Source of the DNA: a phage
Sequence record: PZ452578.1
Length of the DNA stretch: 64,000 bases
Direction: 5' to 3' (one strand)
Shown here: one piece after another, positions 2,485 to 63,209 of the stretch
How the letters are laid out: the number at the start of each line of letters is the position of its first letter
Position numbering within the stretch: position 1 is the first letter of the stretch
Program-made: the position numbers and the translations under genes
Notes under the pieces: generated by a model
Database searches by the model: none
Told to the model about the DNA's origin: nothing
What the model saw: only the letters and a program-made list of their open reading frames with translations

Positions 2485-3065
2485 TATTCACCGCAGAATT
2501 CGTTGATATTTTCCCAGTTTAACTTATTCAAGTTTTTCTTAGGAACATTAAACACTTCAATACCTGCATTTCGCAGAATATCATCCCAGCCAGGTTTATT
2601 TTTATCATATGTTTCGCAATAAACCAGCTTTTTAATACCCGATTGAGCTATCGCTTTTGCACAATCTGGACAAGGAGAAAGTGTTACATACATAGTAGCA
2701 CCTTCAATAGAAGAACCATTTCGTGCAGCAAACAAAATTGCATTTAGCTCAGCATGAATTTCATTTTTAGACGACCATTCAGAGTGAGCGCTGCGGTGTT
2801 CTTTCGCCAAGACAAAACGATCAGTTGAACTAAATGATACACATTCGGGCTTATGACCTTGGATGATAGTATGTTTAGGTTTATTTAGCAACCAACCTTG
2901 CTCAGCAGCATAATCACAACAGTTCACACCCCCTGCGGGGGAACCATTATACCCAGTAGAAATAATACGTCCATTCTTTTCAATTACTGCTCCTACCTTC
3001 CAGGAGCAACATTTGGATTCTTGTGATACTAAATATGCAATTTGAAGTACTGTACTCGCTTTCAT
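2484..3065 (-). CDS. cd: dCMP deaminase (193 aa)
   Basis: Zinc-dependent deaminase motifs HAE and PCxxC (SPCPDCAKAI); 193 aa as T4 Cd. Confidence 0.9.
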   Translation of the reverse strand: MKASTVLQIAYLVSQESKCCSWKVGAVIEKNGRIISTGYNGSPAGGVNCCDYAAEQGWLLNKPKHTIIQGHKPECVSFSSTDRFVLAKEHRSAHSEWSSKNEIHAELNAILFAARNGSSIEGATMYVTLSPCPDCAKAIAQSGIKKLVYCETYDKNKPGWDDILRNAGIEVFNVPKKNLNKLNWENINEFCGE

Positions 3066-3400
3066 TTCATAATCACCAGATAAGCAGATTTAGCAGTTTC
3101 AACACGATAAATTTCGTGACGAAGTTTAGTTATACTTTTAATAACAGAACTAATTATATTCTGCCCATCTTTAAAGCGGTTTTTCTTATCAATAAAAACT
3201 GCGCCAACCATCTTTTTGTGAAGCTCAACTGGATACTTCGTCACAATAATAGCATCATACACAGAAGGATGAATACTATTCACCAGAGTATCATTCATTA
3301 AAGTTATTCTAATGAACTGTGCTGTTTCAGAATCAAGCGCTCTATGATCGCCAGTATCATTTTCAAGACAATTATCAATTATATCAGTTAAATTCATCAT
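3062..3400 (-). CDS. hypothetical protein (112 aa)
   Basis: Track ORF, start overlaps upstream gene stop (coupled arrangement). Confidence 0.45.
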   Translation of the reverse strand: MMNLTDIIDNCLENDTGDHRALDSETAQFIRITLMNDTLVNSIHPSVYDAIIVTKYPVELHKKMVGAVFIDKKNRFKDGQNIISSVIKSITKLRHEIYRVETAKSAYLVIMK

Positions 3401-4525: not shown

Positions 4526-4558
4526 TTAATAATACCCAAGTTTCATGGTGCAAAGCCA

Positions 4559-56759: not shown

Positions 56760-56804
56760 ATTAACCTCTATTCATAAAAGCATTAAAAATTTGGTCATCA
56801 ATAG
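56757..56804 (-). repeat. 48-bp direct repeat, copy 1
   Basis: 47 of 48 nt shared with 57115-57161; one mismatch and one 1-nt indel. Confidence 0.75.
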
Positions 56805-57117
56805 ATGGAATAGCAACCTTTTCGGCATCATTTAGCAAATCATTAATTTCATCGGATAGCATAACACATGTACCTTTATTTCCTGTAATTGTTACTGCGC
56901 AATTACGAACGTTTTCTTTATTAAATTTTAGGTTAATATTTTCGTAATGAAAATCCTTTAATGCTGAATATATTTTTAAAATAAAATTGTCTTTTACTAC
57001 AATAAACCCAACCTCACTATTAAAACGCGGTTCATGGAAACTGTAATAAACCTTTTCATCTATAAAATCGTATGAAATTTTTTCCATTTTTAAATATGAA
57101 AATTCAGAACTATACAT
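56761..57117 (-). CDS. hypothetical protein (118 aa) flanked by 48-bp direct repeats
   Basis: Track ORF; C-terminus shares SIDDQI with the 204-aa ORF. Confidence 0.5.
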   Translation of the reverse strand: MYSSEFSYLKMEKISYDFIDEKVYYSFHEPRFNSEVGFIVVKDNFILKIYSALKDFHYENINLKFNKENVRNCAVTITGNKGTCVMLSDEINDLLNDAEKVAIPSIDDQIFNAFMNRG

Positions 57118-57161
57118 ATTAACCTTTATTCATAAAAGCATTAAAATTTGGTCATCAATAG
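57115..57161 (-). repeat. 47-bp direct repeat, copy 2
   Basis: Pairs with 56757-56804. Confidence 0.75.
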
Positions 57162-57744
57162 AAACATTTACTTTAGACTGTTTTTCTGATGGTAATTCAT
57201 ATCCACATATTACAATTTTGTGATCAATATCAAAATACACAGAAGCAATATGATTAATGATATTTTCAGTGAAGTCTAAATCAACATCAATATCTTTTTG
57301 ACCAAAGCCCAAAGGATAAATAATGCGAGTAATTCGATTATCTTTAACAAAGATTCCACCGACATACTCTGTACTGCGTTTAAAGTCTACACGCCGACGA
57401 AATGAAAAATATTCAGGCTCTTTATGAGCTCGGCTCATAGGACACAACGAGTAACTAGAATAAGAGATGTCAAATCCTACGCCTTCGATATGAGCCAAAG
57501 TGTCATGATTAAACCAATTATAATCGTACGCCAAATCCATTAGATTATAATATGTAAAAGGCACCGGATTAACATCATTAGTCACAAGCATGTAATTAGC
57601 AACTGCTATAATTTCATTGTTTTTAACGAATACAAACCGTGATTGATGCGAATGACCTGGACCCGCGTTTTCACGATTAATGATATAACACTGGGCACCT
57701 TTATATTTGTATGTATCTTTGCACTTGTGCATTTGATAGAGCAT
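57130..57744 (-). CDS. hypothetical protein (204 aa), 61.2 position
   Basis: Track ORF; any equivalence to T4 61.2 is positional only. Confidence 0.45.
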   Translation of the reverse strand: MLYQMHKCKDTYKYKGAQCYIINRENAGPGHSHQSRFVFVKNNEIIAVANYMLVTNDVNPVPFTYYNLMDLAYDYNWFNHDTLAHIEGVGFDISYSSYSLCPMSRAHKEPEYFSFRRRVDFKRSTEYVGGIFVKDNRITRIIYPLGFGQKDIDVDLDFTENIINHIASVYFDIDHKIVICGYELPSEKQSKVNVSIDDQILMLL

Positions 57745-60034: not shown

Positions 60035-60397
60035 TTAAAAGAATTTAAATTTTTTCTTTGACCTTTTATTAAATGCATCTTGTAGTTGCATTGTAATACA
60101 TTTTTCTACATGAGGAGCTAACTCAGCTTTTCTTTCTTGGTCAAGAACAGCAAAGTCCATTACAACCTTTCCATCAACCCAATCTAATTTTGTCACATAC
60201 ACTATATGTGTAGAACCATCTTCTAGTTTAATGATAATCTCCTGGATAACATTTTCCATAGCGGATTTAATTATCTTAAGAGATTCATTAAAAAGACGTT
60301 CTTTTCTTTCTTCTTCCCCCTCCGAAGAGGGGGATTCATCGATAATTTCTAGGTCTAAATCTAAATCATCTTTATTCATTAAATTCTTCCATATCAC
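60035..60397 (-). CDS. 40: gp40 head-assembly protein (120 aa)
   Basis: Size and position between uvsX and 41. Confidence 0.65.
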   Translation of the reverse strand: MIWKNLMNKDDLDLDLEIIDESPSSEGEEERKERLFNESLKIIKSAMENVIQEIIIKLEDGSTHIVYVTKLDWVDGKVVMDFAVLDQERKAELAPHVEKCITMQLQDAFNKRSKKKFKFF

Positions 60398-61553
60398 TTA
60401 ACTGTTCTAGGTCAGTTTCTAAATCAGCAGCTGATTTACTTTTACTTTCTGGAGATTTAAATTTTTCAACCTTTGAGTTAATTAATTCATCGACTTCAGC
60501 TTCAACAATTTCATTACTATCAATAGCACCTAACTGATAAGCACGTTTAATAGCATCTCGGAATGGTTGATGCTTAAATAAAGGACCCCAGAATGTAGTG
60601 CAGTTGGTATCTTTTGCACGCCAAGATTTTTCTTCGCGAATCATCTCGCCGGTTTCTTCATCAAGAAATTCACGAGCATACCAGCCATTTTTAGGTTTTA
60701 CAACAAATCCTAATTCTAGAGCCATATCTAACAATCCAGAATAAGGATCGATACCACCGTCAAATTTAACATCAATAAAGAATTTACTTTTTTCTTTAAC
60801 GGTACGAGATTTTTCTACATTTAGAACAAATTGATACCCCTGAAGATCAGAACCATCTTTAATCTGGCGTTTACCGATAATGAATACAGTATCAGCCGAA
60901 TACATTACGCCTGTACCACCTGTCATCACGGTTTTACTAAACATTTCAATTGTTTCAATTGTATGGTTAACCGCAACACATGGAATATTTTTAATGCTAA
61001 AATAAGGAGTAACAATACGGAATAATGACTTCAGTGATTTAGCACGAGTCATATCTGCCACAGATTTTTCATTCAAGGCATCTTCCGTTTCTTTCTTAGA
61101 AGCCATATTACCGATTGAGTCGATGAATACAATAACCTTTTCACCACGCTCAATAGCTTCAAGCTGGTTCACCATATCAATTTTCAGCTGTTCAACTGAC
61201 TGGATTGGCGTATGAATTACACGTTCCGGGTCAACTCCCATGGATCGCAAATAAGCTGGAGTAATACCAAATTCGCTATCATAGAATAGACAAACCGCGT
61301 CAGGATATTTGTTTAAATATGCCGCAACCATAGTCAAAGACATATTTGATTTAAAGTGTTTAGAAGGCCCTGCGAAAATAGTTAAACCAGACTGCATGCC
61401 GCCATCAATCGCACCAGAAATAGCAATATTAAGCATTGGGATTTTTGTACGGATTACATCCTTTTCATTAAAGAATTTAGATGTAGTCAGTTCAGCAGTC
61501 ATTTTAGAAGTGGAAGCTTTAATCAAACGGGATTTTAAATCTGCAATAGACAT
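60372..61553 (-). CDS. uvsX: recombinase UvsX (393 aa, RecA-like)
   Basis: Sequence recognised as T4 UvsX; Walker A GPSKHFKS. Confidence 0.9.
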   Translation of the reverse strand: MSIADLKSRLIKASTSKMTAELTTSKFFNEKDVIRTKIPMLNIAISGAIDGGMQSGLTIFAGPSKHFKSNMSLTMVAAYLNKYPDAVCLFYDSEFGITPAYLRSMGVDPERVIHTPIQSVEQLKIDMVNQLEAIERGEKVIVFIDSIGNMASKKETEDALNEKSVADMTRAKSLKSLFRIVTPYFSIKNIPCVAVNHTIETIEMFSKTVMTGGTGVMYSADTVFIIGKRQIKDGSDLQGYQFVLNVEKSRTVKEKSKFFIDVKFDGGIDPYSGLLDMALELGFVVKPKNGWYAREFLDEETGEMIREEKSWRAKDTNCTTFWGPLFKHQPFRDAIKRAYQLGAIDSNEIVEAEVDELINSKVEKFKSPESKSKSAADLETDLEQLSDMEEFNE

Positions 61554-61630: not shown

Positions 61631-62383
61631 TTAATCAACTGCTATCGGATGAATAGCATTAAACTTATGAAATGCTTCTGATTTTTCTTTGCGCGAAACA
61701 CACATGCGAAGAACCTTTAATGGCTCGTCTTCTTCACCCAACGATTTTCGTTTTTCAATATTAGAAGTTTTCCAACGAGCTTGCTCTGGAAACTCTCTAT
61801 TGATTTGCTCAAGCGCTCTATTATGTTTAGAATTACTACGAATTGAACTGCACCCGCCAGGAGCTTGTGCTTTTCCAGATACAACCAGATATTTGAACAA
61901 GGCCAAATGCGGATAACCTTGATTAATTAAATTGAGAAATGCATACATATCTTCGCACAAATCAATTTTTCCATACCCAATTTGTTCTGTCGTAAGTTTT
62001 CCAAGGTCATACCATGTATTCGTGAATCCATATGAATTTTCACGATAATTACCCCAAGATGAAGTAATTTTAAAAATTGGTAGACGAGCATGACCGTGAT
62101 AATACCCACAATCCATGGCATCCTCAACATATTGAATCAATTCATAGAACTGTTCACGAGTCAATTGATTGACTTTATCTACGCAACGACGATCATCTCT
62201 TTTTCGCATTGAACTCATACGAATAGTAGTATCATCGTCAATCATCCAGATTCGTTGACCTGCATACATATCAGTAATTGCTTTACGAGTACCGGCAATT
62301 CCGTTTACATCATCAGGAATAGTTACAATTTTAGCTCTAGACCCATAGGCATCATAATAAGCTTTTTCTTCGTGTTCACGCAC
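61631..62383 (-). CDS. putative DNA glycosyltransferase, GT-A fold with DDD motif (250 aa as annotated; GTG start)
   Basis: Occupies the T4 beta-gt locus between uvsX and 42 but is not T4 beta-gt by sequence; IWMIDDDTT DxD-like motif; starts at GTG with no SD. Confidence 0.55.
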   Translation of the reverse strand: MREHEEKAYYDAYGSRAKIVTIPDDVNGIAGTRKAITDMYAGQRIWMIDDDTTIRMSSMRKRDDRRCVDKVNQLTREQFYELIQYVEDAMDCGYYHGHARLPIFKITSSWGNYRENSYGFTNTWYDLGKLTTEQIGYGKIDLCEDMYAFLNLINQGYPHLALFKYLVVSGKAQAPGGCSSIRSNSKHNRALEQINREFPEQARWKTSNIEKRKSLGEEDEPLKVLRMCVSRKEKSEAFHKFNAIHPIAVD

Positions 62384-62472
62384 TACAATATGGGTTCATA
62401 ATCAGTCGGAAACATATCAAGGGCAGAAACTGCCCCAACACGCTGATAACTTGGAATTACGAATTGAATCAT
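62383..62472 (-). pseudogene. 28-codon ORF encoding a GT-A N-terminal motif (MIQFVIPSYQR...), likely frameshifted 5' end of the glycosyltransferase
   Basis: ATG 62472 overlaps gene 42 stop; TAG at 62383-62385 overlaps the GTG of the 250-aa ORF by 1 nt. Confidence 0.45.
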
Positions 62473-63209
62473 TTCCACTCACCTTTATAGTCTTTTTTCA
62501 CAATATGAGTTTCGCCCGTATTCCACCAATGATCAACCAAGTAAAAATGACGAGAATATACATGAAGACTTCCAACATTCCATATAATAGAACCTGCTTT
62601 ATACTGACGAGTTGAATCGCCTGCATTCAAATCAGATACTAATTTATCTAATACGTATTTTTGCCATGCATAATCATTACGGAATCCGAAGACCACGTCA
62701 TTTGAGCGCATGCTTACTACTGCATTGACTTTCTTGTCACGAATCAGATACTGTACGGTATTCGTACACATGAAATCTGACATACCGTCTTTATTATAGT
62801 CAAACTGCATAGATGGACGAGTATAAATCATGATACCACGTCGAGAATCAGGATTTTGACCAAGTTCAGCTAAACACATATCATACTGGGCATAGTTATC
62901 TTCTGACCAGATAGCCCAACCATAATTCGAGTTAATTTCACCTTTAGAAGATGCTACTTGTTGCCAAATCTTCGGTGTTTCACCCGGAATATCTTTAACG
63001 AACAAGCTCTTAGATTTATACCATTCAAGTTCACGCTGAATGTATTCATCATTAAGAGCGCCAAAAATAAACGGTTCATCTGCTACAAATGATGCGCCAA
63101 TAATTTCAATAGTTTTAACACCAGTTTTATCAACTACGAAATCTTTTTCCTTTAATGCAGTTCCCAAATAAAAACGGATTTCTTCAACTGTCATAGAGTC
63201 ATTAATCAT
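62469..63209 (-). CDS. 42: dCMP hydroxymethylase gp42 (246 aa)
   Basis: Sequence recognised as T4 gp42. Confidence 0.9.
   Translation of the reverse strand: MINDSMTVEEIRFYLGTALKEKDFVVDKTGVKTIEIIGASFVADEPFIFGALNDEYIQRELEWYKSKSLFVKDIPGETPKIWQQVASSKGEINSNYGWAIWSEDNYAQYDMCLAELGQNPDSRRGIMIYTRPSMQFDYNKDGMSDFMCTNTVQYLIRDKKVNAVVSMRSNDVVFGFRNDYAWQKYVLDKLVSDLNAGDSTRQYKAGSIIWNVGSLHVYSRHFYLVDHWWNTGETHIVKKDYKGEWK

Follow-up and report, generated by a model that had tools for sequence, protein, structure and literature searches.

Which enzyme does this phage encode between uvsX and gene 42, in the slot where T4 carries beta-gt, and why does its reading frame come in two pieces? The window, by which we mean the whole 64,000-nucleotide stretch of phage DNA that was analyzed, is a mosaic Tequatrovirus segment that runs from gene 30.7 through rIIA/rIIB to imm.1. 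Its left side resembles RB27 and AR1 and its right side RB18, G2133 and NiC89, in each case at 95-97.5% identity, and no record in a collection of 50,697 phage genomes matches it throughout. An earlier note on this DNA, drawn up from the letters alone, had placed a glycosyltransferase gene in the uvsX/gene 42 interval, with a 250-aa ORF that opens on a GTG lacking a Shine-Dalgarno sequence, and all of these elements are present in the sequence (Table 1).

Organization of the locus

Table 1. Features in and around the interrupted ggt gene; positions refer to the window.
Feature	Position	Strand	Description and basis
uvsX	60372-61553	-	downstream neighbor; ORF list and syntenic annotation
ggt 3' fragment	61631-62383	-	250 codons (61634-62383) plus TAA; native V31 to residue 280
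DxD motif D79-D80-D81	62231-62239	-	GAC GAT GAT; read from sequence
ggt 5' fragment	62386-62472	-	native codons M1-P27, then out-of-frame Ile-Leu
1-nt deletion site	62392-62393	-	alignments to relatives and indel census
7-bp hairpin, ggt codons 13-18	62420-62436	-	region invariant in relatives aligned
gene 42 (dCMP hydroxymethylase)	62469-63209	-	upstream neighbor; ORF list and syntenic annotation of RB18, RB27, AV122

On the minus strand the ATG of the upstream ORF (62472-62470) overlaps the TGA of gene 42 (62471-62469) as ATGA, and by way of this overlap ggt is translationally coupled to gene 42, with which it is co-transcribed. The upstream ORF reads MIQFVIPSYQRVGAVSALDMFPTDYEPIL and stops at the TAG in 62385-62383. 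Its native part, MIQFVIPSYQRVGAVSALDMFPTDYEP, comprises 27 residues and is followed by the dipeptide Ile-Leu, so that the ORF has 29 codons; the overlap with the gene 42 stop had been described correctly before, but the length had been given as 28 codons. The GTG with which the 250-codon ORF starts (62383-62381) shares a single G with this TAG, in the arrangement UAGUG, and the 20 nt upstream of it contain no GGAG, GAGG or AGGA and no Shine-Dalgarno-like sequence. This second ORF ends with the TAA in 61633-61631 and would encode everything that follows strand b2, the DxD motif included. As had been stated from the outset, the two frames are jointly open over about 10 nt only (62386-62395), the downstream frame being closed by a TGA in 62398-62396.

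Identity of the interrupted gene

The locus is ggt, the gene for the beta-glucosyl-HMC-alpha-glucosyltransferase (beta-alpha-GT or TAGT) of T2/T6-type Tequatroviruses, situated at the position of T4 beta-gt. When the two pieces were fused, the resulting protein matched a single Pfam family at E <= 1, TAGT (TET-associated glycosyltransferase, PF20691), with 38.8 bits at a cut-off of 27.5, and with 28.6 bits the 250-aa ORF on its own still scored above that cut-off. In PHROGs the 250-aa ORF matched phrog_842, annotated as 'beta-glucosyl-HMC-alpha-glucosyltransferase', with E = 1.6e-73, while an intact homologue reached E = 3.7e-89. A megablast search with the locus found matches in 525 phage records, 475 of which cover at least 80% of the query; these 475 are nearly all Tequatroviruses, at 90-99% identity, and the annotations found among the matching records are ggt, beta-alpha-glucosyltransferase or glucosyl transferase. 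In RB18, RB27, AV122, NiC89, T2 and the T6 record AP018814.1 the gene lies between gene 42 and uvsX, and its start overlaps the gene 42 stop. Intact ggt has 843 nt (280 aa) in the first five of these phages and 840 nt in T6 AP018814.1.

The relationship to these intact genes is close. In a tblastn search the 280-aa ggt of RB18 aligned in two parts, residues 1-27 at 100% identity and, one frame over, residues 28-280 at 98.8%, which agrees with the proposal of the earlier note that one glycosyltransferase of about 280 aa has been split by a 1-nt frameshift. The short ORF, which had been taken for the N-terminus of this enzyme, is indeed a true glycosyltransferase N-terminus, kept in every full-length homologue down to one from a Serratia phage with 47% identity. 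After repair of the frame the protein differs from T2 ggt in 3 of 280 residues and from RB27, AV122 and NiC89 in one; compared to the aligned T6 sequence there are five differences, including the amber codon of record MH550421.1. As the identity to the ggt proteins of T2, T6 and RB18 is 97-99%, there is no need to invoke an arabinosyl-hmC transferase (Aat) of the RB69 type. The repaired gene shares its length (843 nt), its slot and its ATGA overlap with T2/T6 ggt, but the frame that runs there without interruption for some 280 codons is split here into 29 and 250.

The syntenic slot is also shared with T4 beta-gt (PF09198, CAZy GT63; PMC13390438), likewise a UDP-glucose-using modifier of hmC DNA. 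There is, however, no sequence similarity between the two genes, and no match to PF09198 was found at this locus. T4 beta-gt has a GT-B fold and uses hmC as its acceptor, whereas ggt is a GT-A enzyme according to the fold matches of our model and to published work (PMC13216743), and its acceptor is alpha-glucosyl-hmC. That the gene does not resemble T4 beta-gt had been suspected in the earlier note, and with TAGT PF20691 as the one Pfam match this impression proved accurate.

Predicted fold and function of the intact enzyme

A sequence search of the PDB gave no meaningful match (E > 1), and the fold was therefore addressed by modeling. The model was built on an intact homologue with 98% identity to the window gene; it shows a GT-A fold with the DDD motif placed after strand b4, and the Rossmann-like core, to which b1, a1 and b2 belong, was modeled with pLDDT values of 86-95. 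The three aspartates D79-D80-D81 are invariant in the homologue alignment. The fold matches of the modeled homologue are GT-A as well, in line with the fold that had been anticipated from the motif. Note that the GT2-family GT-A enzymes TarP (6H1J), TarS (5TZ8), SpsA (1H7L) and BcsA have only 7-18% sequence identity and act on different acceptors, the acceptor of ggt being DNA. In published work the gene for the T2 and T6 enzyme is placed in synteny with T4 beta-gt, and for the protein a GT-A fold is predicted, as a sister of GT2 (PMC13216743, PMC13390438, PMC6024577).

The intact enzyme transfers a second, beta-1,6-linked glucose from UDP-glucose to alpha-glucosyl-hmC to yield gentiobiosyl-hmC, a modification present on 72% of the cytosines in T6 and on 5% of the cytosines in T2 (PMC13216743, PMC13390438, PMC6024577). 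A counter-defence function of the TAGT enzymes is 'yet to be defined' (PMC13216743). With the gene identified as ggt, the sugar modification different from that of T4 that had been postulated for this phage is therefore the classical gentiobiosyl-hmC. The search for a GT-fold match and the comparison with T2/T6 beta-alpha-gt, both suggested at the time as checks, returned a GT-A fold and a ggt orthologue. The description as a non-T4 GT-A glycosyltransferase had thus been correct, for an enzyme that has been familiar for decades, and with respect to enzyme, fold, synteny and mechanism there is nothing new at this locus.

A private single-nucleotide deletion in codon 27

As evidenced by DNA alignments with NiC89, RB18, T2 and both T6 records, a single T is missing from the window, where GAACCTCAT of the relatives has become GAACC-CAT. 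The relatives read GAA CCT CAT ATT GTA GTG, corresponding to E26 P27 H28 I29 V30 V31. This T occupied the third position of codon 27, between window positions 62393 and 62392, and after its loss Pro27 is retained as CCC and followed by Ile, Leu and a stop codon.

Among the 50,697 phage records this deletion is private to the present genome. A search with 101 nt found 467 matching phage records, none of them identical; the four best matches have 99.0% identity with the gap as their sole difference, and in 30 out of 30 matches listed the 101 nt of the window align to 102 nt of the record. A 32-nt query centered on the deletion, for which a 28-mer across the gap is the only possible seed, had no match in the 50,697 records. 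In viral_contigs, metagenome_contigs and genome_contigs neither the deletion allele nor the intact allele, used as a control, had a match, which leaves the phage records as the informative collection. An exact-protein look-up in public assemblies found the 250-aa ORF not on record.

The remainder of the gene is well preserved. With the T restored, there are 7-29 synonymous codon differences from RB18, RB27, AV122, NiC89, T2 and T6 as opposed to 1-5 non-synonymous ones, where the value of 5 belongs to T6 and includes its own amber codon, while the others range from 1 to 3. The only private substitutions in the ggt of the window are one synonymous change and the conservative replacement I50V, and the repaired gene contains no second lesion. 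From this pattern of purifying selection and the lack of a second lesion it follows that the frameshift is either very recent or artefactual, and an old pseudogene is ruled out on the same grounds.

Indels elsewhere in the window

In a census based on ORFs from RB18 and RB27 with 60 aa or more, 132 of the 141 ORFs with a match in the window run in a single frame and at full length. A break in the middle of a gene was seen for ggt alone, the other multi-frame matches being antisense ORFs that report indels elsewhere in the window. The partial match of mrh.1 was considered as a further broken gene and rejected, since its ORF is intact in the window, at 110 aa, and diverges in its C-terminus. At the nucleotide level, most of the indels against RB18 and RB27 with a length other than a multiple of three are intergenic, compensated within divergent patches or common to other phages.

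Against a panel of four genomes (RB18, RB27, AV122 and NiC89), seven such indels look private to the window, at positions 1112, 2247, 4535, 14713, 46713, 57147 and 62392. Spot checks found those at 1112, 14713 and 46713 to be common to other phages. The indel at 4535 occupies a variable intergenic spot, and the one at 2247 is a harmless tandem duplication of 7 nt (ACCATTT) where genes 31.2 and 31.1 meet; it adds one Trp codon to 31.2 and leaves the start of 31.1 intact. Only two private coding indels were confirmed, the one in ggt (62392) and one in gene 61.2 (around 57147). The latter takes one T from a run of five in the coding strand of gene 61.2 (57130-57744, minus strand), at a distance of 28 nt from the stop; IDDQILMLL takes the place of the conserved C-terminus IDDQIFNAFMNRD, and the stop comes 13 nt earlier. 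Among 337 phage records that match this site there is no identical one, and the best ones differ by the gap alone. Gene 61.2 is small and annotated only as a hypothetical protein, and its paralogous neighbor (56761-57117) retains the C-terminal motif. Both private coding indels lie outside the well-characterized core replication genes of the window. Taken together, the ORF and nucleotide censuses against RB18 and RB27, the four-genome panel and the spot checks led us to reject an error-ridden assembly, and as the window is clean overall, a noisy long-read assembly is therefore argued against.

Origin of the deletion

In the sequence as it stands, translation ends after 29 residues and the allele is null. 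The 250 codons that remain lack strand b1 with its nucleotide-binding motif VIPSYQR, helix a1 and most of b2. Our preferred reading, to which we give about an even chance, takes the deletion for a genuine loss-of-function mutation of very recent date in ggt, a gene dispensable for growth. The DNA of the phage would then carry mono-alpha-glucosyl-hmC only, provided that the phage has an intact alpha-gt, which lies outside the window. In the gene order of T4, alpha-gt is presumably located beyond genes 46 and 47; in T6 these two genes lie some 8-10 kb past the point that corresponds to the end of the window at imm.1.

A serious competitor, which in our estimate falls somewhat short of an even chance, is that the missing T reflects an error in base calling, assembly or polishing; ggt would then be intact in this phage, with 280 aa, and its DNA would carry ordinary gentiobiosyl-hmC of the T2/T6 type. 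The absence of the deletion from all 467 records that match the 101 nt fits this explanation, and the pristine state of the remaining gene is what an artefact predicts too. Moreover, the second private 1-nt deletion about 5 kb away, in the T5 run of gene 61.2, looks like a classic sequencing error and raises the prior for an error here, and public assemblies can contain artefactual frameshifts in ggt, as in the Logan contig ERR4622923_4238. The sequence context CCTC, however, is not a homopolymer, the usual site of indel errors in 454, Ion Torrent and Nanopore data. Neither is there a general excess of errors, given that 132 ORFs match at full length in a single frame and that three other candidates for private indels were natural shared polymorphisms, and random errors would be expected to hit essential genes as well. 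That the indels in ggt and gene 61.2 spare the well-characterized core replication genes favors a real mutation, and so does the finding that ggt is also disrupted in other public stocks. Out of the three origins that had been offered for the interruption, a pseudogene and a sequencing indel are thus both still standing, while a programmed shift is very unlikely. It is improbable, in our view, that the deletion is not only real but was selected, in a natural T6-like phage that has its second glucosylation switched off and possibly escapes a host defence recognizing the disaccharide, with the amber codon in MH550421.1 as a parallel case of recurrent loss.

Recoding would offer a way to make the full-length enzyme from the sequence as it stands, by a programmed -1 ribosomal frameshift within 62386-62395, and its geometry is suitable, as the frames overlap over 10 nt and the fusion product would be the complete enzyme. 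Yet the overlap, GAA CCC AUA UUG UAG, does not hold an X_XXY_YYZ heptamer, no P-site tRNA could re-pair in the -1 frame judging from the codons, and a run of A or T that might support transcriptional slippage is absent. Local RNA folding is unremarkable (z = -2.07; 7 of 200 shuffled sequences fold as well), and a shift is not conserved, the protein being encoded in a single frame in all relatives examined. In view of the absent slippery site, structure and conservation we reject this mechanism as very unlikely. We also consider it highly improbable that ribosomes terminate and reinitiate at the UAG/GUG, with a 250-aa protein that is active either alone or when complemented by the 29-residue peptide in the manner of a split enzyme. 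The overlap of stop and start as UAGUG would allow for this, and in T6 MH550421.1 the annotated ggt is shortened at its N-terminus and begins at M20, but the GTG here has no Shine-Dalgarno sequence and the fragment is missing a part of the Rossmann-like core (b1, a1 and most of b2) that was modeled with high pLDDT (86-95). The missing part contains the QFVIPSY-R motif, which is invariant in the homologue alignment; in GT2-type GT-A enzymes the corresponding N-terminal motif contacts the UDP moiety. Furthermore, no homologue starts near residue 31, and the shorter proteins are fragments or products of frameshifts.

Should our preferred reading of a real null mutation hold, the isolate would amount to a natural knockout of ggt, ready for use, in a T6-like background, and its comparison with an intact sibling on hosts with Brig1, GmrSD, BrxU or other sugar-sensing defence systems could show the benefit of the second glucose. 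If the missing T is an error, the sole consequence is a mis-annotated genome, in which two ORFs or a 250-aa 'hypothetical protein' stand in place of ggt. Neither outcome involves a new enzyme, fold or mechanism.

Other ggt alleles and minor observations

In the T6 record MH550421.1 ggt is also interrupted close to its N-terminus, by a change of CAG to TAG (amber) in codon 10, at about position 2950 of the T6 locus (L005). The lesion there is a nonsense substitution, as opposed to the frameshift in the window. The gene is annotated in that record from Met20, with 261 aa and without strand b1, and in the second T6 record, AP018814.1, it is intact. The T6 TAGT reference protein, YP_010067197.1, was taken from RefSeq (PMC13216743), and if it derives from MH550421.1 it may be the N-terminally shortened form. 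In T2 AP018813.1, codon 11 of ggt encodes His, at a position of the PSYQR motif where Arg is invariant in seven of seven diverse homologues aligned. It is speculation that this R11H exchange might contribute to the low level of gentiobiosyl-hmC in T2 (about 5%, versus 72% in T6).

The Logan contig ERR4622923_4238, from a T-even phage, has gene 42 split into 186 and 65 aa and ggt split into 49 and 183 aa. The 183-aa 'truncated ggt' (P0007) was considered as a biological parallel to the window and rejected as an artefact, the contig having gene 42 fragmented as well; as this contig is error-ridden, frameshifted ggt 'proteins' in large collections can therefore be artefacts. NiC89 (LC620505.1) is the closest relative with respect to ggt; its annotation divides modB into two overlapping coding sequences (2557-3051 and 3012-3182 of locus L012), which suggests a frameshift in that genome.

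The hairpin within ggt (Table 1), GGGGCAG-UUU-CUGCCCU followed by UGAUAUGUUU, is GC-rich and terminator-like and is located immediately 5' of Met20. A structural or regulatory role at the RNA level is conceivable, as is an origin by chance; a hairpin scan yielded two such sites where 0.8 were expected.
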